Shown here: positions 5,209 through 37,274 of the stretch, in pieces
Position numbering within the stretch: position 1 is the first letter of the stretch
How the letters are laid out: each line of letters opens with the position of its first letter
Origin: Bacteroidales bacterium
Lineage (GTDB): Bacteria; Bacteroidota; Bacteroidia; Bacteroidales; UBA4181
Length of the DNA: 37,274 bases
Assembly: GCA_031287245.1 (NCBI GenBank)
Contig: JAITTD010000068.1
Location: forward strand, 1 to 37,274
Direction: 5' to 3'
Notes under the pieces: generated by a model
The model's database searches: none
Seen by the model: only the letters and a program-made list of their open reading frames with translations
Told to the model about the DNA's origin: nothing
Program-made: the position numbers and the translations under genes

Positions 5209-6507
5209 ATGAATCCAATTGTTAATCCGCAATTAATGCACCCGAGCGACCAGATCACCACGGTCATTCGCAGAATCTATGAACGAAGTCTGACCACTAC
5301 GTCGGGCGGAAACCTTTCCATTATCGACGAAAGCGGCGATATATGGGTAACACCTGCTGCTGTAGATAAGGGTTCCCTGACCTCGGCGGACATCATGCAG
5401 GTGAAACGGGACGGGACGATGATCGGCAAGCACAAACCCTCGTCTGAATATCCGTTCCACAAGGCGATTTTTGAATCGCGTTCCGACATCAAAGCCATCA
5501 TTCATGCACACCCGCCTGCCCTGGTTTCGTTCAGCATTGCTCACCAGATACCCAACCCCAACGTGATTTCGCAGGCAAAACACATCTGCGGACCGATAGG
5601 ATACGCCACTTATGAGGTTCCGGGAAGTCAGGCTTTGGGCAAACGCATTGGCGAAGAGTTCAAAAAGGGTTACAATGCAGTGATTTTGGAAAATCACGGT
5701 ACCGTTGTAGGCGGAAAAGATATTAACGAGGCTTTTCAACGCTTTGAAACGCTCGAATTTAGCGCCCGCGCCATCATTTACGGACAAAAAATAGGCGATA
5801 TCAAGTATCTGACCGACGAGCAGATTGAGCAATATGAGCAGCAATTTCTCGAACTGCTGCCCGAGCAGACCGCTGCCGCCTATCCGTCGGATGAACGGAA
5901 AATACGTACTGAAATTTGTGATATAGTGCATCGCGCTTGCCGTCAGGGATTGATGGTGAGTTCGTATGGCACTGTTTCCGTGCGCTGGCGCGACAACGAT
6001 TTTCTCATTACGCCCACCAATGTGGCGCGATGGAATATGGATTTGCAGGACATTGTGCAGATAAAAGACGGGAAACGCGAAAAGGGCAAGACACCCAGTC
6101 GTGTGGCGTGGCTGCATCAGGAAATTTACAACCGCTATCCGCATATCAACTCTATCATTCTTACGCAACCGCCGTATCTGATGGCGTTTGGCGCTACCCA
6201 CAAGGTGCTGGATGTGCGTACCATTCCCGAAAGTTGGATTTTCCTGCAAGACGTGCCTCTGATGCCCTTTGGTTCGCATTTTCGCGGGAAAACCGAGATT
6301 GTGGAAAAACTGGCAGAGGGAATGCCCGCTATTATCATCGAAAACGATTCGGTGCTGGTGACCGGCGACAAACTTCTGCAAACCTTCGACCGCTTGGAAG
6401 TGGCGGAATTTAGTGCGCAATCACTGGTGCTGGCTTCGTCTATCGGTCAGTTGCATCCTATCAACGCGCAACAGATTGAAGACCTGCGCGAAGTGTTCCT
6501 GAAATGA
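5209..6507 (+). CDS. Class II aldolase/adducin-family protein with two tandem aldolase-like domains
   Basis: The ATG at 5209 lies just after the upstream stop at 5201. Domain 1 carries the IHAHP and ENHGTV His motifs of class II aldolases. Domain 2 aligns by eye but has ILTQPP and IENDSVLV at those positions. Confidence 0.8.
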   Translation: MNPIVNPQLMHPSDQITTVIRRIYERSLTTTSGGNLSIIDESGDIWVTPAAVDKGSLTSADIMQVKRDGTMIGKHKPSSEYPFHKAIFESRSDIKAIIHAHPPALVSFSIAHQIPNPNVISQAKHICGPIGYATYEVPGSQALGKRIGEEFKKGYNAVILENHGTVVGGKDINEAFQRFETLEFSARAIIYGQKIGDIKYLTDEQIEQYEQQFLELLPEQTAAAYPSDERKIRTEICDIVHRACRQGLMVSSYGTVSVRWRDNDFLITPTNVARWNMDLQDIVQIKDGKREKGKTPSRVAWLHQEIYNRYPHINSIILTQPPYLMAFGATHKVLDVRTIPESWIFLQDVPLMPFGSHFRGKTEIVEKLAEGMPAIIIENDSVLVTGDKLLQTFDRLEVAEFSAQSLVLASSIGQLHPINAQQIEDLREVFLK

Positions 6508-6514
6508 AGAAATG

Positions 6515-6596
6515 GTGAGACATAGTGAGACAGTGGTGAGACATAGTGAGACAATTGTATCACTATATCTCACTACTGAATCACAACTGAATCAGC
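6515..6596. repeat. Bipartite helical-period tandem array, locus A: 4 GTGAGACA-type units followed by about 4 (G/T)ATCAC/TCTCAC-type units
   Basis: Direct reading: gtgagacata gtgagacagtg gtgagacata gtgagacaatt gtatcactata tctcactac tgaatcacaac tgaatcagc. Confidence 0.9.
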
Positions 6597-6610
6597 AGGA
6601 TGATTTCTTC

Positions 6611-6662
6611 AATTGACAATTGACAATGAAAATGTACCGTGGCTGGGATGCAGATAATTCCT
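6611..6662 (+). repeat. ~52 bp direct repeat, left copy (AATTGACAATTGACAATGAAAATGTACCGTGGCTGGGATGCAGATAATTCCT)
   Basis: Aligns with 7990-8042 with 4 mismatches and 1 indel by eye. Shorter related cores are at 33678-33700 and, inverted, at 29243-29286. Confidence 0.85.
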
Positions 6663-6715
6663 CAATTTCTTCATTTCTCAATTCCTTCATTTCTAAAAAA
6701 ATGCTTATCTTTGCG
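6661..6715 (+). promoter_or_regulatory. Portable promoter module, copy A: CTCAATTTCTTCATTTCTCAATTCCTTCATTTCTAAAAAAATGCTTATCTTTGC, with -7 box TATCTTTG at 6706-6713
   Basis: Nearly identical to 7005-7057 (3 mismatches by eye). Lies 24 nt upstream of the ATG at 6738. A truncated copy is at about 33517-33548 and an inverted relative at about 33373-33405. Confidence 0.7.
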
Positions 6716-6737
6716 GAAGAATTTAAAAAAGAAGGTT

Positions 6738-6959
6738 ATGGTAGCAACAACATTAAATCCAACGCAACTGCATTTATTGCAAATGTTTTCGCACTTGAAA
6801 GACGAGCAAAATTTGTATGAATTGCGAGAAGTATTGCACGATTATTATTGTAGAAAAGTTGAAGAAGAATCCAAACTCATTTGGAACGAAAAAGGACTGA
6901 GCAACGAGATAATGAATGAATGGTTGAATACGCATATAAGAACACCTTACAAACAATGA
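6738..6959 (+). CDS. Small (73 aa) helical protein, possibly an orphan antitoxin-like component
   Basis: The ATG at 6738 lies behind the -7 box. The stop overlaps a downstream ATG as ATGA, a layout typical of toxin-antitoxin pairs. The antitoxin idea rests on remembered similarity to small Bacteroidota proteins encoded upstream of PIN toxins. Confidence 0.5.
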   Translation: MVATTLNPTQLHLLQMFSHLKDEQNLYELREVLHDYYCRKVEEESKLIWNEKGLSNEIMNEWLNTHIRTPYKQ

Positions 6960-6994
6960 AAATTGTTCTTGCTGTCAGGTCGAGGCGACCCTGA
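6956..6994 (+). pseudogene. 12-codon remnant (MKIVLAVRSRRP*) that may be the truncated 5' end of a partner (PIN-like?) gene
   Basis: The ATGA overlap with the upstream stop is preserved. MKIVL resembles common PIN-toxin starts. The frame then runs into a GC-rich hairpin and stops. Confidence 0.3.
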
Positions 6995-6997
6995 CAG
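6972..6997. repeat. GC-rich hairpin CTGTCAGG-N10-CCTGACAG, related to the 43 bp repeat family at 33267-33367
   Basis: 8 bp perfect inverted repeat. It shares CCTGACAGG and (T/C)CG(A/-)GGCGAC strings with the 43 bp units. Confidence 0.7.
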
Positions 6998-7004
6998 GTC
7001 TTAC

Positions 7005-7057
7005 CTCAATTCCTTCATTTCTCAATTTCTTCATTTCTAAAAAATTGCTTATCTTTG
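7005..7057 (+). promoter_or_regulatory. Portable promoter module, copy B (-7 box TATCTTTG at 7050-7057)
   Basis: Near-identical to 6661-6715. Lies 20 nt upstream of the ATG at 7078. Confidence 0.7.
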
Positions 7058-7077
7058 CAGGGTAAAAAACAAAGGAT

Positions 7078-7311
7078 ATGACCACAAAACTGGATAAGCA
7101 GACGAGTGATAAGGTAAGTTTCATTACCTTTATCATACCTGAATTTGCAGCGGGGTATAAGATGAATATTCAAAAGGCATATTTATACTTGAAGCAATAT
7201 GGAGGATTGGACTATCTCAACGAGTGCTGGTGGGCATTGCATACCGACAACCCGTATTGGGCAATTAGAGATATGGCAGAAGTTTGTCGCAAGAACGGAG
7301 GAGGATTGTAA
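7078..7311 (+). CDS. DUF3791-like small protein (77 aa)
   Basis: The pattern (...FIIPEFAAGYKMNIQKAYLYLKQYGGLDYLNECWWALHT...VCRKNGG) matches my memory of DUF3791 proteins, which are encoded next to DUF3990 genes. The stop overlaps the next start as TAATG. Confidence 0.65.
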   Translation: MTTKLDKQTSDKVSFITFIIPEFAAGYKMNIQKAYLYLKQYGGLDYLNECWWALHTDNPYWAIRDMAEVCRKNGGGL

Positions 7312-7988
7312 TGCTTGTTTACCACGGCAGTTATACGGAAATCAGAGATATAGACCTTTCGATGACTTCGCCCCGCAAGGATTTTGGCAAAGGGTTTTAT
7401 GTCACAAAATTTCGCAAGCAAGCGGAAGAATGGGCAGAACGAATTGGCAAAAAACACGGTAGTAAAGGCGTAGTTACGGAATTTACCTTTTATGAAAATG
7501 CCTTTATTGACGGAGTTCACAAGGTCTTGCGTTTTGAAGGCTATACCGATGAATGGTTGGATTTTGTCGTTTCAAACAGACGGTTGGATTCGCCCGTTCC
7601 TGCGCACGACTATGACATTGTAGAAGGTCCGGTTGCCGATGATAAGATTTCAAGACACATCACAGCATATATAGATGGGGATATTTTGAAGGAAGACTTT
7701 TTCAAATCCCTCGTTCATCCTGCGCCTACGCATCAGATTTGTTTTTGCACATCCGATTCCTTGCTGATGATTAAACGTCAGGAAGGCATTGATATAAAAT
7801 ATGCCATTTCGAACATCGGCGAGCCGCTTGTAGAGCAACTGATGCTTGACCGGCAAATAGACGAAATAAAAGCCGCCGACCTGTTCTATACCTCGGCAAC
7901 CTTCACCCAACTGGCTGACACCGACACCAAACTCTACGAAAAAGACTGGCAGGAAATCTACCAAATGCTGAAAAAAGAGTTAGTTTAA
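7311..7988 (+). CDS. DUF3990-like protein (225 aa) with a C-terminal helical extension; candidate ADP-ribosyltransferase-fold enzyme
   Basis: The start at 7311 (MLVYHGS...) is preferred over 7284 because of the TAATG coupling. Motifs are VYHGS, GKGFYVT, IVEGPVADD and QICFCT. The GFY motif is the hallmark I recall for DUF3990. Confidence 0.65.
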   Translation: MLVYHGSYTEIRDIDLSMTSPRKDFGKGFYVTKFRKQAEEWAERIGKKHGSKGVVTEFTFYENAFIDGVHKVLRFEGYTDEWLDFVVSNRRLDSPVPAHDYDIVEGPVADDKISRHITAYIDGDILKEDFFKSLVHPAPTHQICFCTSDSLLMIKRQEGIDIKYAISNIGEPLVEQLMLDRQIDEIKAADLFYTSATFTQLADTDTKLYEKDWQEIYQMLKKELV

Positions 7989-7989
7989 A

Positions 7990-8042
7990 AATTGACAGTT
8001 GACAATGAAAAATCTACCGTGGCTGCGATGCAGATAATTTCT
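7990..8042 (+). repeat. ~52 bp direct repeat, right copy
   Basis: AATTGACAGTTGACAATGAAAAATCTACCGTGGCTGCGATGCAGATAATTTCT; see 6611-6662. Confidence 0.85.
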
Positions 8043-8082
8043 AAATTAAAAGTAATCATAAAATCATTCAAAATAATTAAAA

Positions 8083-13631: not shown

Positions 13632-14927
13632 TCACGCTTCAATACAAAACGCAGCATAGAGTGGTACTGATTTTATCCCATTTTCAAAGCCGAAATTTTT
13701 CTTCGAGATGCGGATGCCATACGGGCATTTATATTTCTCCATGAACATACCAAAACTTTTGGAACGTATTCTAATTCCGTTTTTGACCTCAACAGGAATC
13801 ACGTCCACGCCTTTTTGGATGACAAAATCCACCTCGGCGGTATTGTCATTTTTCCAATAGAGCAAGGGTATCAGATTGGCAGCAAATGCTTGTGCTACAT
13901 AATTTTCGGCAATCGCTCCCATAAATTGATTGTTTGTTTCAAGGGGTGATAAAATCGCTTGCGTCCCCATTCCCGACCGCATGACAAGCATGCCGACATC
14001 AGACAGATAGAGTTTGAAATCGCTCAAATCAACATACACTTTAATCGGCATGGTTCCGTGTGCTGTTTTTTGGCATTTCAAAATAACGCCTGCGTATTTG
14101 AGCCAGTCGATGGATTCACCGAAAATAGTGGCGCTCCCTCCTTTTTGAACCACATTGTATTGGAATTTGTGATTCTCTTTTGCCAACTGCGCGGGAATCG
14201 ATTCATAGCAGGCGCGCACCTTGATGCTGGTAGCCGATTCGGCATATTTTGACATATCGGCGATATATTCATTCAATATCCTGTTTTGAATATCCGCAAC
14301 TGCCACAAAACTGTTGCTTGCCACAAATTCCTTCACGGCAGCAGGCATACCGCCGACAATCAGATAGTGATTGTAAAGGTCTATCACTGTTGAATGTATA
14401 TCCAAAGGTTCGTTCGTCTCGTAATGCGCTCGAATAGCATTGGCAAAATTTTCTCTCCCCATTGCCCATAAAAATTCCTCAAAATCCATTGGAAACAGAT
14501 TTATTTCATCGACTTTACCCACCGGAAATGAATATTTTTTGCGGTTGACAGCCACGCCAAGCAGCGAACCGGCAGCCACAACGTGATATTCGGGCGCTTG
14601 TTCGCAAAAATATTTCAATGAAGTCAAAGCGCTTTCGCACGCTTGAATTTCATCGAAAACAATGACGGTTTTACCCGGAATAATTCGCTGCAAATGAACA
14701 GATTCCAAGTATTGAATAATCGGCACAGGCGTGATGTTCTCCTCTAATTTCGCTGCTAAGGCTTTGTCGGTTTCCAAATTGACAATAATGTAATTGTCAA
14801 ACTCTTGCTTGCCGAACTCTCGCAAAATATAACTTTTACCTACCTGTCGGGCACCGTTGACAATCAAAGGCATTCTGCTTGACTGATTTTTCCATTTGAC
14901 TAAACCGTCATAAATTTTCCGTTTCAT
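13632..14927 (-). CDS. AAA-family ATPase (AAA_14/DUF4143-type ATP-binding protein)
   Basis: 431 aa with Walker A (GARQVGKS) and Walker B (VIVFDEIQ). The overall pattern is that of the widespread DUF4143 ATPases. Confidence 0.8.
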   Translation of the reverse strand: MKRKIYDGLVKWKNQSSRMPLIVNGARQVGKSYILREFGKQEFDNYIIVNLETDKALAAKLEENITPVPIIQYLESVHLQRIIPGKTVIVFDEIQACESALTSLKYFCEQAPEYHVVAAGSLLGVAVNRKKYSFPVGKVDEINLFPMDFEEFLWAMGRENFANAIRAHYETNEPLDIHSTVIDLYNHYLIVGGMPAAVKEFVASNSFVAVADIQNRILNEYIADMSKYAESATSIKVRACYESIPAQLAKENHKFQYNVVQKGGSATIFGESIDWLKYAGVILKCQKTAHGTMPIKVYVDLSDFKLYLSDVGMLVMRSGMGTQAILSPLETNNQFMGAIAENYVAQAFAANLIPLLYWKNDNTAEVDFVIQKGVDVIPVEVKNGIRIRSKSFGMFMEKYKCPYGIRISKKNFGFENGIKSVPLYAAFCIEA

Positions 14928-15066: not shown

Positions 15067-15226
15067 ATAACCACGTATAACTATGTATAACCACGTATAA
15101 CTATGTATAACAACCTATAACCACGTATAACCACGTATAACAACCTATAACAACCTATAACAACCTATAACAACCTATAACCATGTATAACCACCTATAA
15201 CCATGTATAACCACTTATAACCCTGT
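15067..15226. repeat. 16 tandem units with an exact 10 bp period (ATAACNNNNT: ataaccacgt, ataactatgt, ataacaacct...)
   Basis: Direct reading; ATAA recurs every 10 bp without an indel. The array ends 3 nt from the pepD stop codon. Confidence 0.95.
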
Positions 15227-15229
15227 ATT

Positions 15230-16681
15230 TCACACCGCTTTCAGTGTCTCCACCAAGTATTTCCAAAACTGCGCCACCGTTGGGATGTTCACTTTTTCGC
15301 CGGGCGAATGTGGGTGCAGGATGGTGGGACCGCAAGAAATAAACTCCATTTCGGGATAGTTTTTGCCAAAAATGGCACATTCCAATCCGGCATGAATCAC
15401 CTTCACAGTTGCCTCTTTTTGAAAGGATTTTTTGTAGGTGTCCTTCATAACGGACAGTATCTTAGAGTTGAAGTTGGGACGCCATCCCGGATAGCCACCG
15501 CTCAGTTCCGCCTTGCTTCCAGCCAATTCTGCCAAAGCGGCGATTTCTTCTGCCAGCGCCTCTTTTGCCGAATCAACCGAACTGCGCAGCAAACAAGCGA
15601 TATTTACCGCTTTGCCGTCGGATTTTACAATGGCTAAATTGGTGGAAGTTTCCACCACATCGGGCATATCGGCAATCATGCGCTGTGCTCCGTTTGGCAT
15701 AACGAGTATCGTGTTGATGATTTTATCCTGCGATGCCTTGTTGATGACTGTTGCGGGCAATGAGGTTTTTTCGGCTGTGAAAATGATGCCCTGTTCCACT
15801 CCGTCCAATTCGGTGGTGATCGTTTTCAGGAAACCGGCTGTATATGCTTGCAAATCGGCGCTTTTGGCAGTCGGCACAGTGATAACCGCTGTGGCTTCAC
15901 GCGGAATGGCGTTGCGCATATTGCCCCCTTCGATGGATGCCAGCCGCACATCGTATTTCGCTGCGGCGTTCCACAGATAACGCGCCAGAATTTTGTTGGC
16001 ATTGCCCCTGCCTATGTTGATGTCGGTGCCGGAATGTCCGCCTTTCAAGCCGGTCAGCGTCAGTTTGCAGGCTTCGGTTGTTTTGTCGGGCGTTTCGCTG
16101 TCGTAGGGTATGGCTATGGTCAGGTTGACGCCGCCTGCGCAACCGATGCACAGTTCGCCTTCTTCCTCCGAATCAAGATTGAGAAAGAAAGAGCCTTTCA
16201 ACACCCCGGCTTGCAATCCGTTAGCGCCGGTCATGCCTGTTTCTTCGTCAATGGTGAAAAGCGCCTCAATGGGTCCATGTGCGAGGTCTTTCGCTTCGAG
16301 CACCGCCAAAGATGCCGCTACGCCGATGCCGTTGTCCGAACCCAGCGTGGTGCCGCGGGCTTTCACCCAGTCACCATCCACATACGGATGTATCGGGTCT
16401 TTCTCGAAATCATGCTGCACATCGTTGTTTTTCTGCGGCACCATATCCAAATGGGATTGCAGCACAACGCCCGGGCGGTTTTCCATTCCTGCCGTTGCCG
16501 GTTTTCGGATAATCACATTGCCGGTCGCGTCAACAGTATAGTCCAACCCCTGTGCGATGGCAAAATTCTTCACAAATTCCACCGCTTTGGCTTCCTTTTT
16601 CGATGGGCGCGGGATAGCGCTCAATGCTGCAAAATGCTTCCACAAAAGTTGTGGTTCTAAGGTATTTAATTCTTTACTCAT
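15230..16681 (-). CDS. pepD: Aminoacyl-histidine dipeptidase (M20C, PepD-like)
   Basis: The start at 16681 (MSKELNTLEPQLLWKHF...) is preferred to the upstream ATG. HLDMV, DNGIG and IDEETGMTGA motifs are present. Confidence 0.85.
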   Translation of the reverse strand: MSKELNTLEPQLLWKHFAALSAIPRPSKKEAKAVEFVKNFAIAQGLDYTVDATGNVIIRKPATAGMENRPGVVLQSHLDMVPQKNNDVQHDFEKDPIHPYVDGDWVKARGTTLGSDNGIGVAASLAVLEAKDLAHGPIEALFTIDEETGMTGANGLQAGVLKGSFFLNLDSEEEGELCIGCAGGVNLTIAIPYDSETPDKTTEACKLTLTGLKGGHSGTDINIGRGNANKILARYLWNAAAKYDVRLASIEGGNMRNAIPREATAVITVPTAKSADLQAYTAGFLKTITTELDGVEQGIIFTAEKTSLPATVINKASQDKIINTILVMPNGAQRMIADMPDVVETSTNLAIVKSDGKAVNIACLLRSSVDSAKEALAEEIAALAELAGSKAELSGGYPGWRPNFNSKILSVMKDTYKKSFQKEATVKVIHAGLECAIFGKNYPEMEFISCGPTILHPHSPGEKVNIPTVAQFWKYLVETLKAV

Positions 16682-16736
16682 GGTTCTTTTATTTATTTTT
16701 TGGGTTGTAAAGGTACATTTATTTTTGATAAAATCA

Positions 16737-17444
16737 CTAATCATTCATAATTATTCCTTCGCTATACACCGGCACAATGTCCGTCAGGTCGATGGTGTGG
16801 CAATAGGGAATCGTGTCTGCGGCGTTGATTTTTCGCAGGCGTTCGTTTTGGGCTGCCTTTTTGATGTAGCCCATCAGGTCGGCTTTTGCCAGCGACCAAA
16901 GATCCATAGCCGCCAGAGCGCTGTCGCATACGGTGGTGAATTTGCCGGTATCCGTCAGTCGTTGCGCCACTGCACCTGCAAACACAGCGTCTTCCAAGTT
17001 AAATCGTCCTTTCCAGCCGGCGCAAAGCAGGAAAACATCACTGTCCCCCGCTTCGAGCCATCGGCATACTGCGCTGAGGTTGAGGTAACTGCCCACTGCC
17101 ACACGTCGGCATTGTGCAGCCGTATTGATAGTGTGCGTTCCGTTGGTAGTGCTGTAAGCAATGGTTTTCCCCGCCACCCGTTCGCGAGTAAAATATTTCG
17201 GAGAGTTGCCGATGTCTGCAAAATCAAGTTTGACGCCATCCCGTTCGGCAGCAATGATATACCTTCCCACGTAAGTTTTCAATTCTTCGATGGTGCTGAC
17301 GGGGATTACCCGTTCCGCTCCGTTCATAAATGCAGTGCAAATGGAAGATGTGGCGCGAAGCACGTCAATAGCCACAGCATTGCAGCCCTCGTGAGGATAG
17401 GATGGAAACTGAACAGGGGTAAAACAAACGTTGATTTGATGCAT
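16737..17444 (-). CDS. comB: 2-phosphosulfolactate phosphatase (ComB) family protein
   Basis: 235 aa with the [20 protein letters not shown] and STTNGT motifs that I recall for the ComB family. Confidence 0.75.
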
Positions 17445-24908: not shown

Positions 24909-25000
24909 GGTTCGGAGTGTTACCGTACTCCGGTTCGGAGTGTTACCGTACTCCAGTCTGGTGTGTTACCGTACACCGGTTCGGTGTGTTATCGTACTCC
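24909..25000. repeat. 4 tandem 23 bp units (GGTTCGGAGTGTTACCGTACTCC), each with an internal hairpin
   Basis: Units are at 24909, 24932, 24955 and 24978. The array starts 3 nt after the mnmA stop. The last unit supplies the final codons and stop of the convergent GH30 gene. Confidence 0.9.
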
Positions 25001-29187: not shown

Positions 29188-29286
29188 AATTCTATTGTGA
29201 TTCTATTATGATTCGTGGTGATTCTATTGTGATACATTGTGAAACGGTTGTATTTCATTGTCCATTGTCACCTGTCCATTGTCCAC
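29188..29286 (-). repeat. Inverted-orientation composite: GAATCAC-type 11 bp units (29188-29241) plus a GACAATGGACAATGAAATACAAC core (29243-29286), lying between the GH3 start codon and its putative promoter
   Basis: Its reverse complement reads gtggacaatggacaggtgacaatggacaatgaaatacaaccgtttcacaatgtatcacaatagaatcaccacgaatcataatagaatcacaatagaat. It matches the composite at 33678-33732. Confidence 0.85.
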
Positions 29287-29378
29287 ATACAAGTAATCTT
29301 CACTGCGCAACTTTTCAAACGACTGTATCCCTATCGGTAATTTTGGCATGACTTCCCAATATTATATTATATTGATGG

Positions 29379-29430
29379 GGACAAAAGTAGATGAAAGTTT
29401 TCAAATATCCAAGCGCGTGACATGAAAAAC
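29379..29430 (-). promoter_or_regulatory. Promoter-bearing ~50 bp repeat, copy 3 (-7 box TACTTTTG on the minus strand at 29382-29389), facing the GH3 gene. It overlaps the last ~9 codons and stop of the RND gene.
   Basis: See copies at 139-190 and 10461-10511. The RND C-terminus VFHVTRLDI* is encoded by the repeat. Confidence 0.6.
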
Positions 29431-32400
29431 GGTTTTTTTCTCTCGCCACCAGCATTGCAGCACCGGCACCACGAACATGGTCATGCTTTGGATGAGCATA
29501 CCGCCAAAAACGGGGATTGCCATTGGTATCATTATTTCTGCGCCTTTGCCGGTGGATGTGAGTACCGGCAACAGCGCTATGAGCGTGGTGGCAGTAGTCA
29601 TGGCGGCAGGGCGTACCCGTTTCAGTCCGGCTGTCACCACTGCTTCGCGTATTTCGCTGCGGGTGCGTGGATTGCGTTCGAGGAAAGTGTTGTGGATGTA
29701 AGTGCCCATCAGTACGCCGTCGTCGGTAGCGATGCCGAACAGGGCGATGAAGCCTACCCACACTGCTACGCTCAGGTTGATGGGGTGTATCCCGAAAAGG
29801 TCGCGCATATTTCCGCTGCCGGTGTCGAAATTCATGAACCAGGGCTGCGCATAGAGCCACAGCATGATGAATCCGCCTGCAAAAGCCACGAACACGCCCG
29901 AAAAATGGATGAGCGACGCTGTGACAGTTCGGAAACGGAAGTAGAGAATGAGCAGAATAGCCAACAGACAGAGCGGAATGACTGTCATCAGTCGCCGCAT
30001 TGCTCGCTGTTGCTGCTCGTAATTGCCGGCAAATTTGTAGGACACGCCGGCAGGCAACCGTATTTCGCCCGAAGCGATTCCGTCTTTCAGCATTTTGTCT
30101 GCCTGCTGCACCACATCCACCTCGGCTTGTCCCGCCTGTTTGTCAAAAATGACATATCCCGTGAGGAAAGTATTTTCGCTCTGTATCATTTGTGCGCCTT
30201 TGGCATAGTCAATGTTTGCCACTTCGCCCAGCGGTATCTGTACGCCGGTAGCCGTCGGGATGATGATACGGCGCAATGCTTCGGGGCTGTCGCGCAACTC
30301 GCGGGGGTAGCGCAGGCGCACAGGGAAGCGTTCGCGCCCTTCAACGGTAGTGGTGAGCGTCATGCCGCCCACCGCAACGCTGATCACTTCCTGCAAATCA
30401 CTTACCGTGATGCCGTAGCGAGCCATATTGCGGCGATTGAGTTGTATCTCAATACTGGGTGCGCCCACGGCACGGTCGTAGAACACCGTAGAAGGCAGGA
30501 TGGACGGCACAGTCTTTAACGCTGCTTCAAGCGCTTGCCCGCCCTGCTCAATGCTTTCGAGGTCGGGACCGGTCACTTTCAAGCCCATTGGGGCACGCAT
30601 CCCTGTGGAAAGCATCACTAACCGAGCCTCAATGGGTTGCAACTTGGGCGAAGAAGTCAAGCCCGGCATGTGCGACACGTTCACAATCTCCTGCCATATA
30701 TCGTCGGTGTTGCGGATATGCGAACGCCACTGCCGGAAATAATCGCCACGGCGGTCGGGAACGAGCAAAGCCTCCCATCCCTCAGAGGGGGGGCTTTGGC
30801 GCAGAATTTCTTCGGGGGACAGCCAAACAACGGTGTCATGTAGAGACGTGGCATGCCGCGTCTCTACAACCGCAAACTCCCCTCTGTCATTGGTTTTAAA
30901 CCGTTGTCTGTGACCGTCTTCATCCAGAATATATTCCGGACGGTAGTTGATGGTATTTTCGAACATCTGCACCGGTGCGGGGTCGAGGGCTGAATTGACG
31001 CGCCCCCACTTGCCGATGGTCAGTTCCACTTCGGGGATAGCGGTGATGCGTCTGTCCAAAGCGCCAATCAAATGGCGGTTTTGCTCAATGCCGGTGTGCG
31101 GCATGGTGGTGGGCATCAGCAAAAAAGAGCCTTCATCGAGCGCCGGCATAAACTCCTGCCCCATGTTTCGCCATATCAGTATTCCGCAAAGCAGGGTGGC
31201 TGCCGGTATCAGCATAAATTTCAAGCGATTGTCAAGGCACCAGCGCAGAATACGCCCGTAGAACGCCACTAATGTCCAAAGAGCGCCAATAATCAATCCA
31301 ATGGCGACCACCACAAAGAGGAAATTCAGGAAAAAGCCCGTTTGGGTGCCAAGAGGTAGCCATACGGACGTCAGGAGGTACAGCATCGCGAAAAGGGCGA
31401 GGGCGGTTCCTGCCCGTTTCCCCTTTTTCCGTAGAGACGTGGCGCGCCGCGTCTGTTGTGGAGACGTGGCATGCCGCGTCTCTACCTTGCCCATTACATA
31501 ATAGGCAATGGTGGGCAACAGGGCAAATCCCAGTATGAAGGCAGAAATCAGCGCGAAGGTTTTGGTGAAAGCCAGCGGTTTGAACAGTTTGCCTTCCTGC
31601 GCCTGCATGAAAAACACCGGCAGAAAACTGATGATAGTGGTCAGCATTCCGGTGGACAGAGCGCCGGAAACCTCGCGAACACTGCGGTAGATGACAGCCC
31701 CTTTCTCCATAGAGGCGTCTTTCATATTCCTCACAATATTCTCCACAATCACCACCCCCACGTCCACCATCACCCCGATGGCGATGGCAATACCCGACAG
31801 CGCCACGATATTGGCATCCACGCCGGTGTAGCGCATGATGATGAAGGTGGTAAGCACTGCAACCGGCAGCAGGCTGGAAACGATGATGGAAGCGCGCAGG
31901 TTGAAAATCAGCACCAGCACCACGATGATACAAATCAGGATTTCGTGCAAAAGGGCTGTTTCGAGCGTTCCGATGGTTTCGCGGATAAGGTTGGTGCGGT
32001 CGTAGAAGGGCACGAGGGTCACTTTGGATACGGTGCCGTCTGCGAGGGTTTTTTGCGGAAGTCCGGCGTTCATCGCTGTTATCTGCGCCTTCACATTGTC
32101 AATCACTTCCATTGGGTTGGCGCCGTAACGCGCCACCACCACGCCTCCTGCGGCTTCCACACCTTCCTTGTCCAAGCCGCCGCGCCGCGTGGCAGGACCC
32201 AGGTTCACAAAGGCAACATCTTTGATGCGCACCGGAACGCCGCCCCGCACTGTTACCACGGCTTCTTCCAAGTCGCTGATGTTTTTGATGTAGCCCAAGC
32301 CGCGCACAATGTATTCCACCTTGTTCATCTCAATGGTTTCTGCGCCAATGTCGAGGTTGCTCTTCTGCACGGCAGTCATCACGTCCATCACCGACACATT

Positions 32401-33054
32401 GAACGCCCGCATAGCATCGGGGTTGATTTCCACCTGATATTCCTTCACGAAACCGCCCACCGATGCCACTTCTGCCACGCCGCCGGCAGCGGAAAGGGCA
32501 TATTTCACATAAAAATCCTGCACTGTCCGCAATTCATCGGGACTCCAACCACCGGCAGGCTCTCCTGTTTCGGGATTGCGCCCTTCGAGGGTGTACCAGA
32601 AAATTTGCCCCAAAGCAGTGGCGTCAGGACCTAACGCCGGCTGAACGCCCTCCGGCAAGGTTTTGGCGGGCAGGGATGCGAGTTTTTCCGACACGCGGGA
32701 ACGGCTCCAGTAGAAATCGGCATCATCATCAAAAATGATATAGATAAACGACATTCCGAACATAGACGTGCTGCGCAAGGTCTTCACATTGGGAATGCCC
32801 AACAGCGCCGCAGAAAGCGGATAGGTAATCTGCTCCTGAATGTCTTTGGGCGAGCGTCCCATCCATTCGGTGGCGACAATCTGCTGGTTTTCGCCAATGT
32901 CGGGGATGGCATCCACCGGCACGGGATTGCGGGGCAACCAGCCGCCATGCCAGTTGAACGGAGCAACCGAAATGCCCCAGAACACGATAACAGCAAGCAA
33001 CAACAGCGTGACGAGCCGATTGTTGAGGAAATATTGAATGATGCGGTTGAGCAT
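29401..33054 (-). CDS. CusA/CzcA-family heavy-metal efflux RND permease (long 1217 aa form)
   Basis: It aligns by eye with E. coli CusA along its length (N-terminus MLNRIIQYFLNNRLVTLLL, MLSTGMRAPMGLKV, C-terminal 12-TM architecture). Extra loop segments are present. Confidence 0.9.
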   Translation of the reverse strand: MLNRIIQYFLNNRLVTLLLLAVIVFWGISVAPFNWHGGWLPRNPVPVDAIPDIGENQQIVATEWMGRSPKDIQEQITYPLSAALLGIPNVKTLRSTSMFGMSFIYIIFDDDADFYWSRSRVSEKLASLPAKTLPEGVQPALGPDATALGQIFWYTLEGRNPETGEPAGGWSPDELRTVQDFYVKYALSAAGGVAEVASVGGFVKEYQVEINPDAMRAFNVSVMDVMTAVQKSNLDIGAETIEMNKVEYIVRGLGYIKNISDLEEAVVTVRGGVPVRIKDVAFVNLGPATRRGGLDKEGVEAAGGVVVARYGANPMEVIDNVKAQITAMNAGLPQKTLADGTVSKVTLVPFYDRTNLIRETIGTLETALLHEILICIIVVLVLIFNLRASIIVSSLLPVAVLTTFIIMRYTGVDANIVALSGIAIAIGVMVDVGVVIVENIVRNMKDASMEKGAVIYRSVREVSGALSTGMLTTIISFLPVFFMQAQEGKLFKPLAFTKTFALISAFILGFALLPTIAYYVMGKVETRHATSPQQTRRATSLRKKGKRAGTALALFAMLYLLTSVWLPLGTQTGFFLNFLFVVVAIGLIIGALWTLVAFYGRILRWCLDNRLKFMLIPAATLLCGILIWRNMGQEFMPALDEGSFLLMPTTMPHTGIEQNRHLIGALDRRITAIPEVELTIGKWGRVNSALDPAPVQMFENTINYRPEYILDEDGHRQRFKTNDRGEFAVVETRHATSLHDTVVWLSPEEILRQSPPSEGWEALLVPDRRGDYFRQWRSHIRNTDDIWQEIVNVSHMPGLTSSPKLQPIEARLVMLSTGMRAPMGLKVTGPDLESIEQGGQALEAALKTVPSILPSTVFYDRAVGAPSIEIQLNRRNMARYGITVSDLQEVISVAVGGMTLTTTVEGRERFPVRLRYPRELRDSPEALRRIIIPTATGVQIPLGEVANIDYAKGAQMIQSENTFLTGYVIFDKQAGQAEVDVVQQADKMLKDGIASGEIRLPAGVSYKFAGNYEQQQRAMRRLMTVIPLCLLAILLILYFRFRTVTASLIHFSGVFVAFAGGFIMLWLYAQPWFMNFDTGSGNMRDLFGIHPINLSVAVWVGFIALFGIATDDGVLMGTYIHNTFLERNPRTRSEIREAVVTAGLKRVRPAAMTTATTLIALLPVLTSTGKGAEIMIPMAIPVFGGMLIQSMTMFVVPVLQCWWREKKTVFHVTRLDI
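30840..30867. repeat. 28 bp near-perfect palindrome GTAGAGACGTGGCATGCCGCGTCTCTAC inside the RND coding sequence
   Basis: 13 of 14 positions pair with the reverse complement. It is translated in frame as VETRHATSL. Confidence 0.9.
31431..31485. repeat. 55 bp double copy of the same palindrome (GTAGAGACGTGGCGCGCCGCGTCT-GTTGTG-GAGACGTGGCATGCCGCGTCTCTAC) inside the RND coding sequence
   Basis: Direct reading. It is translated in frame as VETRHATSPQQTRRATSL. Confidence 0.9.
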
Positions 33055-33149
33055 ATTTAGAATGACGAATTAAAAATTGCGGAATACTTTGTTTATTTTG
33101 ATGGGTACAAAAATACAAAGAATAATGATGAATGATGAATGTTTAATTA

Positions 33150-33266
33150 TTAAATTTTGCTAAATTTTCGTGAGGCGCCCTCTCTTCCAACATTTTCAAC
33201 GACAATATGCCCAAAATGTTCATCCAGATGCTCCCAATATTTGCGATTTGTGGCGAAAACAGCGGT
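33150..33266 (-). pseudogene. Possible 3' remnant of a gene (...TAVFATNRKYWEHLDEHFGHIVVENVGREGASRKFSKI*), whose upstream part is replaced by the 43 bp repeats
   Basis: The 33150-33332 ORF has a protein-like C-terminal half. Its N-terminal half is simply the translation of the GC-rich tandem repeat. Confidence 0.3.
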
Positions 33267-33367
33267 CCCCTGTCGGGGGACACCCGCGCCGACCCCTCGG
33301 CGACACTTTCCCCTGACAGGGGACACCCTCACCGACCCCTCGGCGACACTTTCCCCTGTCGGGGGAC
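33267..33367. repeat. 2.3 tandem copies of a 43 bp GC-rich unit (CCCCTGwCrGGGGACACCCnCnCCGACCCCTCGGCGACACTTT), each with a CCCC-N4-GGGG hairpin
   Basis: Units are at 33267-33309 and 33310-33352, with a partial unit at 33353-33367. Confidence 0.9.
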
Positions 33368-33574
33368 CTTAATGGAGAAATTGAGGAATTGAGAAATTTA
33401 GGAATACCCTGACGGACAAAAATAAGGGAAGATATTACCGCAGCCGTAGAAGAAGTAAGACAAGAACGGTATGAAAGCGGTCAACAAAATCAATAAGGTA
33501 ATCATAGGTCTTCGTGCGCCTCAATTTCTCAATTTCTAAAAAAATGCCGTCAATAAATAAATGTATCAATTTAT

Positions 33575-33667
33575 GTATCCCCTAACGGGGAATTGAGGTG
33601 ATATTAAGATTTATTTCTATTGATATGAATGTCCTACGGACAAGCGAATATTCCCCGTTAGGGATAC
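33575..33667. repeat. 93 bp element bounded by 16-17 bp inverted repeats (GTATCCCCTAACGGGGA ... TCCCCGTTAGGGATAC); MITE-like or a structured RNA
   Basis: The arms are reverse complements apart from one missing G. Each arm is itself a small hairpin (TCCCC-TAAC-GGGGA). Weaker symmetry extends to about 33561-33678. Confidence 0.7.
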
Positions 33668-33677
33668 ATGATACAGG

Positions 33678-33732
33678 GACAGTTGACAATGAAATACAAC
33701 GAATCACCACCGTCTCACCACTGAATCACAAT
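33678..33732 (+). repeat. Composite: GACAGTTGACAATGAAATACAAC core followed by GAATCAC/GTCTCAC-type units
   Basis: Matches the reverse complement of 29188-29286 and the left part of the 52 bp repeats at 6611 and 7990. Confidence 0.8.
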
Positions 33733-33845
33733 ATAATGTAAATAAGGTGAAAGGTGTCTTTAAAAAAGATAAATGTATGAAGATGATAAATAAGCCAATA
33801 TCAAAAATTGGTTTTTCATAAAAAGAGATTACCTTTGCAATAAAA

Positions 33846-34160
33846 ATGATGGTAGATTCTGCAAACATTGGACAAACAGCCGAGGAGGTTGAACGAGGCA
33901 ATAAGCGAATATTGCGCCTTCCTGAAAGTGCAGAGGAGGGCAGAATACTTGGAGGCAGAACAGCAATTGAAGCATCCCTTATCGTGGGAATTGCAGAAAC
34001 GGCAGATAGAACAGAGCCTGATGTCGCAACGGTAAGAAAACGGCAGGAAATCGCATTGGAAGAATACGCCAAGCACAAAGGCATTTGGATGGATTACGCC
34101 CGAATAGAGGCTACGTGGGAAGGCGTTGAAGGACGGGGTGGACAGCGTAGTGGAATTTAG
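33846..34160 (+). CDS. Orphan 104 aa ORF of unknown function, possibly a truncated N-terminal fragment
   Basis: Has its own -7 box TACCTTTG (33830-33837) 8 nt before the ATG. The composition is protein-like (acidic/helical). The frame ends just before the repeat array at 34166. No family recognised. Confidence 0.4.
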   Translation: MMVDSANIGQTAEEVERGNKRILRLPESAEEGRILGGRTAIEASLIVGIAETADRTEPDVATVRKRQEIALEEYAKHKGIWMDYARIEATWEGVEGRGGQRSGI

Positions 34161-34165
34161 GAATG

Positions 34166-34290
34166 GTGAGACAAAGTGAGACAGTGGTGAGAAATAGTGA
34201 GACAATAGAATCACTACTGAATCACTACTGAATCACAATTGAATCACTACTGAATCACAATAGTCTCACTACCGAATCACCATCGAATCA
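34166..34290. repeat. Bipartite helical-period tandem array, locus B: 4 GTGAGACA-type units followed by about 8 GAATCAC-type 11 bp units
   Basis: Reads gtgagacaaa gtgagacagtg gtgagaaata gtgagacaata gaatcactact gaatcactact gaatcacaatt gaatcactact gaatcacaata gtctcactacc gaatcaccatc gaatca. Confidence 0.9.
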
Positions 34291-34345
34291 AAAATTTAAA
34301 CCTGTGTTTCGTAATTCGTAATTTTTTATCTATTTTTGCGCTGTT

Positions 34346-35167: not shown

Positions 35168-35811
35168 ACGGACTGTTGTTTATCACCCATAACACAGAGC
35201 GATACTGTTACCTGCAATCGATAGAGATAGCCCTGCAAGGCGGTTGCAGAAGGATACAACTGCGCATGAAAGACGCCGCGCCCGAAGAAATAGAACGAAC
35301 CGGAAGGCAGGCGCTGACGCTGTGTGCCCAATATGGCGCCGAACTCTATATTGACGACTGCGTGGAAGTTTGTAAAAACTTGGGAGCAACGGGTGTGCAT
35401 CTCGGAAAAACGGATATGTCGCCCGTTGTTGCCCGCCGAATGCTGGGGAAAAATTTCATCATCGGCGGCACTGCCAACACATTCGACGATATTGCCCGCC
35501 TTCATGCGGAAGGGGTGGATTACATCGGATTAGGTCCGTTCCGGTTCACGCACACCAAGAAAAATCTAAGTCCCGTGCTGGGGTTGACGGGTTATCGCGA
35601 CATACTCGCCCAATGCAGGCAAACCGGTATTCATTTGCCCATTGTTGCTATCGGAGGCATCACCATAGCCGACATTCCCGACCTTATGCGCACAGGCATA
35701 GCAGGCATAGCCATGTCATCTGCTATTCTATCGGCTGATGAGCCTGTTGCCCATGCACAACGCATCATAGCGACAATACGCAGTTCCGAAATCGGTCAAG
35801 CCCTTCCATGA
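35164..35811 (+). CDS. thiE: Thiamine-phosphate synthase
   Basis: 215 aa with IQLRMKD, GVHLGKTDM, YIGLGPFRFT.TK and AIGGI motifs. The 3' end overlaps the convergent lyase gene by 47 bp. Confidence 0.85.
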   Translation: MNGLLFITHNTERYCYLQSIEIALQGGCRRIQLRMKDAAPEEIERTGRQALTLCAQYGAELYIDDCVEVCKNLGATGVHLGKTDMSPVVARRMLGKNFIIGGTANTFDDIARLHAEGVDYIGLGPFRFTHTKKNLSPVLGLTGYRDILAQCRQTGIHLPIVAIGGITIADIPDLMRTGIAGIAMSSAILSADEPVAHAQRIIATIRSSEIGQALP

Positions 35812-36928
35812 GCACAGCCCGCGGGCAGGCAATGTTGATACGCAGGAAGTTTTCACCGTTTTTGCCATACATCAAGCCCGGGTTGAAGCGCACTTTGGCT
35901 TTTTCCAAAAGCGTTTGCGCCAGTTCCGATGGCGAACACGGCAAGGCGGCACAATCTACCCACGGCAAGTAGGTGGCTTCGAGCGGCAAAACATACAGTT
36001 GAGGGAAGTTTTGCACAAAAAAGTCAGTCAATGCCAGATAATTATCGCGCAGATAAACCAATAATTGTTGCAACCAGTCTTCCCCTTTGTTGTAGGCTGC
36101 AATTAACCCGTCTATTGCGAAAGCGTTGGCTTCGGCGATTCCGTTCTGGTGAAAAGCCCTTTCCACCTTCGCCCGTAACGCGGCATCCGCTACAAACGTG
36201 TTGGACACGTGCAAACTGGCGAGGTTGAAAGTTTTGCTGGGGGAAGTGCAGGTAACGGAATGAAGCAAAAAATCCTCACTGAGAGAGGCAAATGGAATGT
36301 GCTGATGCTCGGGAAAAACAATGTCGCAGTGAATTTCGTCGGAAACTACCGTCACCTGATTTCGGATGCAAATCTCGCCCATCCGCGTCAGTTCTTTCTT
36401 TGTCCACACCCGTCCTGCCGGGTTGTGGGGATTGCAAAGCAGCATGAGTTTTGTGCGAGGGTCGGCTGCAATGCGTTCCAAACCGTCAAAATCAATGGTA
36501 TAAAGTCCATTGTCATAAATCAGGTTGTTGGAAACGGTTTCACATTCATTCAGCCCAATGTTCCGATAGAAACAGTTGTACACGGGCGATTGCACAATCA
36601 CCCTGTCACCCGGTTCGGTCAATGCCCTGATGATGGCAGAAAGAGCAGGCACCACGCTGTTGGCGTACAATATCCACTCCTTTTTCACGCTGAACCCGTA
36701 GCGACGACTAAACCAACTGTCAATGGCGGCATAATAAGCATCGGGAAACATGGCATAGCCAAAAATGCCGTGCTGCACCCGTTTCATCAAAGCGTCCACC
36801 ACCGGCGCGGCTGTCCGAAAGTCCATATCGGCAACCCACAAGGGCAAAACCTCGCTGTCCTCAGTAAAATCCCATTTCAGGGAATCTGTCCCCTTGCGGG
36901 GAATTATTTCATCAAAATCGTATTTCAT
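35765..36928 (-). CDS. PLP-dependent C-S lyase / aminotransferase class I-II (MalY/PatB-type cystathionine beta-lyase)
   Basis: The true start is MKYDFDEIIPRKGTDSLKWDF at 36928, behind the -7 box TATTTTTG (minus, 36933-36940). MalY/PatB-like N-terminus, LCNPHNPAGRVW and SPSKTFNLA (PLP lysine) are present. Confidence 0.85.
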   Translation of the reverse strand: MKYDFDEIIPRKGTDSLKWDFTEDSEVLPLWVADMDFRTAAPVVDALMKRVQHGIFGYAMFPDAYYAAIDSWFSRRYGFSVKKEWILYANSVVPALSAIIRALTEPGDRVIVQSPVYNCFYRNIGLNECETVSNNLIYDNGLYTIDFDGLERIAADPRTKLMLLCNPHNPAGRVWTKKELTRMGEICIRNQVTVVSDEIHCDIVFPEHQHIPFASLSEDFLLHSVTCTSPSKTFNLASLHVSNTFVADAALRAKVERAFHQNGIAEANAFAIDGLIAAYNKGEDWLQQLLVYLRDNYLALTDFFVQNFPQLYVLPLEATYLPWVDCAALPCSPSELAQTLLEKAKVRFNPGLMYGKNGENFLRINIACPRAVLMEGLDRFRNCVLSL

Positions 36929-36976
36929 GGCGCAAAAATACAAAAAAAAGTTACAACTGGATGATTTTTTTTTGAG

Positions 36977-37240
36977 GTGAGACATAGTGAGACAGTGGTG
37001 AGACAGTGGTGAGACATAGTGAGACAGTAGTGAGACAGTAGTGAGACAGTAGTGAGACAGTGGTGAGACAGTAGTGAGACATAGTGAGACAGTGGTGAGA
37101 CAGTGGTGAGACAGTGGTGAGAAATAGTGAGACAATTGTATCACAATCGAATCACAATCGAATCACTATCGAATCACAATTGTATCACAATTGAATCACA
37201 ATTGAATCACAATTGAATCACAATTGAATCACAATTGTGA
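36977..37240. repeat. Bipartite helical-period tandem array, locus C: 15 GTGAGACA-type units (10-11 bp) followed by 9 (G/T)(A/T)ATCAC-type 11 bp units, ending in the palindrome TCACAATTGTGA
   Basis: Units were counted directly: 36977-37137 is the a-part and 37138-37240 the b-part. The array begins 49 nt upstream of the lyase start codon. Confidence 0.95.
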
Positions 37241-37274
37241 TTTTTTCTGAAAGTTTTCTATTTTCTGTTCTACG

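Follow-up and report, generated by a model that had tools for sequence, protein, structure and literature searches.

Hairpin-forming intergenic minisatellite elements have a precedent in Bacteroidales: BrickBuilt of Porphyromonas gingivalis, which gave no BLASTn matches outside that species (Klein et al. 2015, PMC4596501). Long simple sequence repeats (SSRs) with units of 5–11 bp were reported from prokaryotic intergenic DNA (Huang & Mrazek 2014, PMC4060949; Mrazek et al. 2007 cited there), and weak mismatch repair of loops exceeding 3 nt was proposed as their cause (PMC4060949). Here we describe three bipartite tandem-repeat arrays, designated A, B and C, on contig JAITTD010000068.1, which was analysed over its entire 37,274 bp (hereafter, the window) and belongs to a metagenome-assembled genome (MAG) listed at NCBI as “MAG: Bacteroidales bacterium”. 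Like BrickBuilt, they are spacer-free intergenic tandem repeats present in several copies with a variable number of units, and they are predicted to form a long stem-loop. A, B and C descend from a common ancestor, are absent from the orthologous sites of congeners, and are built from a unit family that has been turned over between sister species. The best-supported reading is that of a hairpin minisatellite that forms part of a burst of intergenic tandem arrays specific to the lineage.

Hairpin architecture and common ancestry of the three arrays

Arrays A (6515–6596), B (34166–34290) and C (36977–37240) were found where an initial annotation had placed them, with one junction in common, GTGAGA(C/A)ATAGTGAGACAAT(T/A)G(T/A)ATCAC. 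The left arm has the form (GTGAGACA + 2–3 nt)n, its unit being (GTR/ATA)GTGAGACA. Counting the units again returned the earlier numbers, left plus right, of 4+4 for A, 4+8 for B and 15+9 for C, the last with an additional terminal TGTGA, in three intergenic loci within 37 kb. Tandem Repeats Finder (TRF), with which tandem arrays were called, likewise gave the period of 10–11 bp noted before, and the smaller landmarks are in place as well: TCTCAC at 6568–6573, GTCTCAC at 34263–34269 and the palindrome TCACAATTGTGA at 37229–37240. GTGAGACA occurs 21 times in the window, always on the plus strand and always within these loci, versus 0.66 occurrences expected from shuffles; GAATCAC occurs 23 times versus 5.8 expected.

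The two halves of each array had been described as dyad-related, and this relation is real: the right unit represents a degenerate version of the left unit's reverse complement. The right arm presents a series of increasingly degenerate complements, from TGTCTCAC through TGTATCAC to TGAATCAC, each with three further nt. The perfect partner, TGTCTCAC(TAC/TAT), occurs once in A (as TATCTCACTAC, a perfect complement of the left core) and once in B (as AGTCTCACTAC at 34262); the one-mismatch form is located at the junction, and the two-mismatch form is the amplified one. Each array folds as one long imperfect hairpin, with z scores (folding energy versus dinucleotide shuffles) between −2.9 and −6.2, and the conserved junction GTGAGACAATTGTATCAC, nearly palindromic about its central AATT, forms the apex. 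The energies amount to −38.2 kcal/mol for A (z −6.2), −41.3 kcal/mol for B (z −4.8) and −82.5 kcal/mol for the whole locus C (z −2.9); with its closing stem included, A reaches −44.5 kcal/mol (z −4.7). Single units (GTGAGACAGTG, TGAATCACAAT) have no internal dyad, and pairing occurs solely between the arms. Since other arrays of the window do not fold (z +1.5 at 29189 and +1.8 at 15067), the hairpin is a property of the A/B/C family and not of tandem repeats generally.

Rfam 15 covariance models at gathering score matched nowhere in the window, and neither a thiamine pyrophosphate riboswitch nor any other Rfam family was found upstream of the thiS-thiE operon (34161–34345). Consensus scans detected no terminator and no sigma-70 promoter at A, B or C, and their matches overall were no commoner than in shuffles. 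The strand preference of the RNA folding energies was inconsistent in sign across the loci, giving no support for selection or function at the RNA level. GC skew tracked gene orientation and was uninformative.

The internal order of the units reveals how the three loci are related. The left arms of A and B are identical in layout, whereas that of C is longer, opening with the same first two units and closing with the same last two (GTGAGAAATA GTGAGACAAT). Once the 11 interior left units of C are left out, an alignment of the three loci needs no gaps, and they are nearly identical from the left arm over the apex into the first right units. Beyond the arrays the flanks are unrelated, except that A and C both have a short TGATTTnTTC stretch on their right side. 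The shared unit order and apex point to a single founder of ~85 bp, since independent slippage cannot produce them. The change in unit number by slippage that had been suggested for the arrays is supported in this form: C is an A/B-type element with 11 additional interior left units.

The loci had been placed just past stop codons or upstream of promoters, correctly so. Array A begins 7 nt past the aldolase stop codon (TGA, 6505–6507) and array B 5 nt past the stop codon (TAG, 34158–34160) of a 104-aa open reading frame (ORF, 33846–34160). Array B ends ~40 bp ahead of the thiS −7 box, with ~55 bp between the array and the thiS ATG. Array C starts ~48 bp upstream of the true ATG (36928) of a divergent minus-strand MalY/PatB-like gene; the 459-aa “ORF” at 35765–37144 is patB prolonged through the open minus-strand frame of the array. 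The arrays lie outside ORFs, on the upstream side of the −33 element or past stop codons. A, B and C share one orientation, and the flanking genes of A, B and related arrays have the same orientation as the array. The 104-aa ORF ahead of B has 99 homologues, the best of which are longer proteins (168–251 aa, up to several thousand); it matches their N-terminal part and may be a truncated gene remnant.

Orthologous sites, the sister genome and wider distribution

All three sites are empty in congeners at 83–93% protein identity. In relatives L036 (PatB 87% identical) and L037 (83%), the thiS-thiE-thiE-patB order is conserved along with the promoter boxes, but B and C are missing; L036 has instead a small element of a second compound-array family (ATGAAATACAAC + ATCAC units). 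Array A is missing from L164 (aldolase 93%) and L168 (at least 90%), where the downstream gene abuts the aldolase stop.

The sister genome L163 (GCA_025999995.1) is ~90% identical in nucleotide sequence over a 6.5-kb syntenic block that ends at the 3′ end of the aldolase gene. There, an unrelated array, (GAACGRGT)x14, starts 7 nt past the same aldolase stop and does not fold. Past another stop of this genome stand five AACGnnnn units, an apex and ~13 complementary nnnnCGTT units, which form a hairpin of −53.9 kcal/mol (z −5.9). Its architecture is that of A, B and C, in another sequence and with an 8-bp period. The unit families of the two genomes are mutually exclusive: GTGAGACA occurs 21 times in the window and 0 times in L163, and GAACGAGT 0 and 9 times, respectively.

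Tandem arrays are abundant in both genomes. At least one array is present in 6 of the 7 window spacers longer than 180 bp, and TRF called at least eight other short-period arrays (periods 7, 8, 10, 23 and 43), unrelated to A, B and C and, like all units of the window (periods 7, 8, 10, 11, 23 and 43), unrelated to one another. Together the arrays make up ~2% of the contig and lie outside coding sequence save for minor overlap at gene ends. With uniform TRF settings, the array coverage was 2.05% in the window, 2.10% in L163 and 0% in 58 kb of five other congeners. Two sister species with ~90% nucleotide identity each have ~2% of their DNA in short-unit arrays, drawn from wholly different unit families.

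To place the family in a wider context, we scanned 185,579 species genomes, Joint Genome Institute (JGI) metagenomes, viral contigs and 5.8 billion protein clusters; the window's own genome is absent from the set of species representatives. Across all of these collections, the A/B/C family was found solely in the present MAG. The junction had 0 matches in the metagenome collection. Three consecutive left units gave 35 matches in scattered phyla, which are unrelated repeats or mobile-element ends, none with a right arm, and the five matches to left units on viral contigs are all unrelated iteron-like arrays, again without a right arm. Three right units gave at least 120 metagenome matches, a generic motif with many spacer variants. 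A phased complementary GTGA left arm was found in 0 of 121 generic right-unit arrays, and 1–2 of 120 generic GAATCAC arrays (L139, perhaps L063) have an inverted partner of any kind. A search of the protein clusters with the spurious ORF translated from the open minus strand of the left arm (HCLTTVSPLSH...) returned one weak unrelated match.

Some of these matches form groups of their own. L139, a metagenome contig and the sole clear case of an inverted partner among the 120, has (GAATCACCTGT)x7 followed by (GTGATTCGCnA)x3, and the whole unit is seemingly repeated along the contig. Unrelated dispersed elements that contain (GTGAGACAnn[n])x3–4 were seen in L004, L011 and L030 (one Rhodospirillales MAG) and L019, as well as in L009, L024, L027 and L031 (Prevotellaceae and other MAGs). 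Ahead of the array, the Rhodospirillales loci have an inverted GGTCTCAC and a conserved GCCGATGCCATCGGCATCGG hairpin, and the Prevotellaceae group represents a conserved locus upstream of a gene starting MEYKKRCQWCGEPFIAHKLT.

Between the aldolase and rhomboid genes lies a hotspot of variation (window 6508–8082; L163:11303–11447; L164:7377–8045; L168:7913–8581). It holds a hypothetical ORF and a DUF3791/DUF3990 pair in the window, a 222-aa gene in L164 and L168, and the array alone in L163. L163 also has 5.8 copies of a 22-bp palindromic unit, AAAACGAGTATTCGTTTTAACC, at 13912–14039, whose arm holds the AACGAGT of its 8-bp arrays, and a (CGTTCACT)x4 array at 14089–14118, whose first unit, read on the gene strand, contains the RecX stop TGA. 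This arrangement hints that short units derive from half-sites of a palindromic repeat.

Origin of the arrays and alternative explanations

We consider A, B and C to be copies of one genome-specific, non-coding dispersed repeat, a fast-turnover hairpin minisatellite with tandemly amplified arms, and give this reading a probability of roughly 55%. In a first step, the ~85-bp founder, comprising four left units, the apex and at least four right units, would have been copied to several intergenic sites. In a second step, replication slippage would have changed the arm lengths in place, adding the 11 interior left units to C and further right units to B and C. Slippage is assumed here as the expansion mechanism, and the dispersal would be REP- or MITE-like (see below), with no enzyme identified. 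Placement after stops and upstream of promoters would follow because a gene-dense genome tolerates insertion and expansion only there. The prevalence of the mismatched right unit plausibly keeps a long inverted repeat viable. If transcribed as a 3′ untranslated region, A and B could form a long stem-loop acting as a terminator or RNase barrier, like REP, enterobacterial repetitive intergenic consensus (ERIC) and BrickBuilt sequences. Such a 3′ role would be incidental, and any function of the arrays is probably at most generic.

Several points weigh against this reading. The three copies seen all lie within 37 kb, and genome-wide dispersal is an extrapolation from them. Neither by eye nor by alignment did we find a consistent target-site duplication or terminal inverted repeat, and no leader, tail or cognate enzyme was found. 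The mismatched right unit has itself been amplified, and right-type units also stand alone, with no left arm, at 29189 and 33680, so that a role of its own is conceivable for the right arm. The shared orientation of the arrays and their co-orientation with genes could hint at a directional function, and the inconsistent strand preference in folding fails to support a function at the RNA level without excluding one.

The alternative that survives best, although unlikely, is a conventional MITE (miniature transposable element with inverted repeats), derived from a transposon with tandem subterminal transposase-binding sites and mobilised in trans. The arms are indeed short-motif arrays, inverted and unequal in number on the two sides, with an internal order common to three copies and sites empty in relatives, and genome-specific unit families would be expected from co-evolution with a cognate enzyme. 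The arm cores, however, differ (GAGACA versus the complement GATTCA), a difference that would be unusual if one binding specificity served both, and the termini beyond the arrays are not conserved. No target-site duplication is consistent among the copies, the sole candidate being the 9-bp TGATTTTTT that flanks C within T-runs, and there is no transposase among the genes of the 37-kb contig.

Somewhat less likely still are selected 3′-end elements, that is, terminators or mRNA-stabilising stem-loops in an organism largely devoid of canonical intrinsic terminators. The close spacing of A and B to the stops of co-oriented genes would fit such a role, as would the closing stem of A, which reaches into the stop codon, the absence of a canonical terminator after either upstream gene, and the T6 run behind the hairpin of C. 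The L163 hairpin array likewise begins at a stop codon. Non-folding arrays (15067; L163:11310) also abut stops, which makes array position independent of the hairpin, and relatives have no such element at the same gene ends. Nor do the loci resemble intrinsic terminators: A and B lack a T-run (a U-tract in the transcript), while C has T6 after its hairpin but no co-oriented gene upstream, patB being divergent. Folding energy shows no consistent preference for the sense strand.

We regard as doubtful the proposal, made in the initial annotation, that the helical period marks an intrinsic curvature of the DNA or binding sites lined up along one face of the helix, here taken as phased cis-regulatory DNA that modulates thiS and patB, with unit number tuning expression. 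The 10–11-bp period and the positions of B (with its end ~40 bp before the thiS −7 box) and C (beginning at about −50 of the patB promoter) agree with this proposal. Curvature was estimated with a dinucleotide wedge model, using parameters from the literature, against a background of 8.0 ± 2.3 degrees per turn (95th percentile 11.9) and a phased A-tract control of 28.9. The right arm of C (AATTGAATCAC) lies at the 95th percentile with 11.8 and its left arm gives 9.7, but A and B are predicted straight (7.0 and 5.2), so that predicted curvature overall is near background and the claim is unsupported. Other arrays lie between A and the next promoter, ~110 bp away, and many unrelated unit families in one window would need as many binding proteins. 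The post-aldolase position in L163 holds a quite different 8-bp unit. Given the 8-bp period of the equivalent element in L163, the periods of 7, 8 and 23 bp in the window, and relatives that keep their promoter boxes yet have no arrays upstream, there is no case for a helical-phase function or a dedicated binder.

It is equally doubtful that the arrays represent an undescribed repeat class of paired inverted minisatellites (“arm-amplified quasi-palindromes”), with a lineage-specific mechanism, full replacement of unit families within ~10% divergence and hairpins co-opted as 3′ ends. They might be made by an HUH- or RAYT-like enzyme (RAYT, REP-associated tyrosine transposase) that works on half-sites or, in a lineage deficient in repair, by template-switch replication, and co-option of the hairpins would have taken place in a Bacteroidales lineage without canonical terminators.

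An assembly artefact, or independent chance slippage at each locus with no shared element, is very improbable: C does abut the contig end (34 bp away) and the family is absent from every other assembly searched, but A and B, at 82 and 125 bp, are located inside the contig and do not reach the length of a sequencing read, the units vary aperiodically, the longest exact internal repeat of C is 43 bp, so that a k-mer above 43 resolves the array and copy number is not inherently ambiguous, and unit order and apex are common to three loci. Confinement to this assembly had been named as evidence of an artefact; the family is indeed restricted to the present MAG, but analogous arrays in the independent sister assembly speak against an artefact.

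If the preferred reading of a fast-turnover hairpin minisatellite is true, the two sister species offer a small natural experiment in the colonisation of bacterial intergenic DNA, and a comparison of repair and transposase repertoires between array-rich and array-poor relatives could reveal the trigger of the burst. In practice, such arrays break short-read assemblies and create spurious ORFs such as 35765–37144. On present evidence, the A/B/C element reveals no new regulatory mechanism.

Neighbouring repeats and relation to described systems

The genes of the window are ordinary housekeeping genes (RecQ, hexokinase, class II aldolase, RecX, AckA, SecA, RF3, MnmA, GH30, GH3, a resistance-nodulation-division (RND) pump, ThiS/ThiE and PatB). 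The features of the three arrays and of two related arrays are listed in Table 1.

Table 1. Positions of array features in the 37,274-bp window
Feature	Position	Strand	Details
Array A, closing stem, left half TGAAGAAAT	6505..6513	+	9 bp, includes aldolase stop TGA
Array A, left arm	6515..6555	+	four units GTGAGACA + TA / GTG / TA / AT; lengths 10-11-10-10
Array A, right arm	6556..6596	+	units TGTATCACTA, TATCTCACTAC, TGAATCACAAC, TGAATCAG
Array A, closing stem, right half ATTTCTTCA	6604..6612	+	pairs with TGAAGAAAT
Related compound array	29189..29290	-	right-type GAATCAC + 4 nt; left part (GGACAAT)n + ATGAAATACAAC; no hairpin
Small right-type array GAATCACCAC, CGTCTCACCAC, TGAATCAC after GACAATGAAATACAAC	33680..33730	+	second family
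Array B, left arm	34166..34206	+	four units; lengths 10-11-10-10
Array B, right arm	34207..34290	+	eight units (A/T/C)G(A/T)(A/C)TCAC + 3 nt
Array C, left arm	36977..37136	+	fifteen units; first two and last two match A/B, 11 extra interior
Array C, right arm	37137..37240	+	nine units TG(T/A)ATCAC / CGAATCAC + AAT/TAT; ends in TCACAATTGTGA
T6 run directly 3′ of array C hairpin	37241..37246	+	terminator-like tail, only one among the three loci

The second compound-array family consists of the motif ATGAAATACAAC followed by ATCAC-type units and occurs at 29189 (minus strand), at 33680 (plus strand) and in L036 (1150–1200). The array at 29189 reaches right up to the GH3 start codon, and the copy in L036, the relative at 87% identity, points toward the patB promoter. 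A second dispersed module lies at 6657–6716, 7005–7058, 33505–33545 and, on the reverse strand, 33371–33405. It is composed of 8-bp arrays (CTCAATTT / CATTTCTT) followed by TAAAAAA(A/T)TGCTTATCTTTGC, with a −7 box of the Bacteroidetes type, TAnnTTTG. Each of the copies at 6657 and 7005, which are nearly identical, stands ahead of a gene. This module appears to be a promoter-carrying repeat.

Within the AcrB-family RND pump gene (29401–33054, minus strand), perfect 28-bp palindromes, GTAGAGACGCGGCATGCCACGTCTCTAC, are present in frame, one as a single copy and one in tandem or dimer form (30840–30867 and ~31425–31485). They encode ...VETRHATSL... peptides and share a GAGAC core with the left unit. 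They look like REP-like selfish palindromes within coding sequence, comparable to intragenic REPs (PMC3733652). A link between the left unit (GTAG-TGAGAC-A) and these GTAGAGACG...CGTCTCTAC palindromes was considered and set aside, the shared core being too short to test.

Further arrays are confined to single loci. (ATAACCACGT)x16 at 15067–15228, the unfolded array mentioned above, has a higher-order structure of 20–30 bp, is unique in the window and, read on the minus strand, starts 1–2 nt past the stop of an M20 peptidase gene (15230–16744). At 24909–25000, four copies of the 23-bp unit GGTTCGGAGTGTTACCGTACTCC, each with its own small hairpin (GGAGT...ACTCC), fill the entire spacer that separates the convergent genes mnmA and GH30 and also overlap the stop of GH30. 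A repeat-rich non-coding stretch of 790 bp (33055–33845), adjacent to the 104-aa ORF, comprises 43-bp units with CCCCTGTCGGGG hairpins (33266–33367), several 7–8-bp arrays and further CCCC(N4)GGGG hairpins at 33580 and 33655.

Returning to A, B and C, the element shares with BrickBuilt its occurrence in Bacteroidales, a strictly intergenic location, species specificity and the lack of an Rfam match (PMC4596501). BrickBuilt, however, is a direct repeat of a single 23-nt unit type, whereas A, B and C combine two types of 10–11 bp in inverted arms around an apex. BrickBuilt also possesses a conserved leader and a tail with terminal inverted repeats (PMC4596501), neither of which was detected in the aligned flanks of A, B and C. 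The units are unrelated in sequence to the 23-nt P. gingivalis brick.

The arrays have the intergenic tandem units of 5–11 bp that characterise long SSRs, and those of the window occupy ~2% of the contig. Cyanobacterial short tandemly repeated repetitive (STRR) heptamers are another example of long SSRs. As described, such repeats are tandem 6–11-bp units in intergenic excess in particular lineages only, with many unrelated unit sequences per genome (PMC4060949), as is also seen in the window. They are, however, simple one-unit arrays, and neither inverted hairpin pairing nor copies at several loci with the same internal unit order, as in A, B and C, belong to their description (PMC4060949). 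Phase-variable contingency SSRs, whose unit number switches expression and whose length varies between strains, lie within an ORF or a promoter spacer; in position, at least, A, B and C differ from them.

Transposon ends with multiple subterminal transposase-binding sites are found in Tn7, Mu and the plant elements En/Spm and Ac. Such ends are, like A, B and C, arrays of short motifs in opposite orientation with unequal numbers of sites per side. In contrast to them, A, B and C have no cargo, no consistent target-site duplication and no defined termini, no transposase lies on the 37-kb contig, and their arms abut directly.

Repetitive extragenic palindromic (REP) sequences and their composites, bacterial interspersed mosaic elements (BIMEs) and REPINs, are GTAG- or CGTC-tagged palindromes (Di Nocera et al. 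2013, PMC3733652) that resemble A, B and C in many respects. Both consist of short palindromic DNA that does not code, lies mostly downstream of ORFs and is often clustered or tandemly reiterated, both form genome-specific families with large variation between close relatives, and both can fold into larger structures and have possible roles at the RNA level (PMC3733652). The REP unit is itself a 20–40-bp stem-loop (stem 5–13 bp) with an unpaired tetranucleotide tag (PMC3733652), whereas none of the units of A, B and C is a palindrome, and a hairpin arises only from the complete array with its two arms. GTAG is present where the spacer is GTA, in 5 of the 15 left units of C and in none of A or B, and there it is complementary to the CTAC of right units with a TAC spacer, not an unpaired tag. 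No RAYT (IS200/IS605-like Y1 transposase) is encoded within the 37-kb contig. The A/B/C element has its closest published relatives in kind in BrickBuilt, in REP/REPIN sequences and in the intergenic excess of 6–11-bp repeats known from particular lineages (PMC4060949), and it lacks defining features of the first two.

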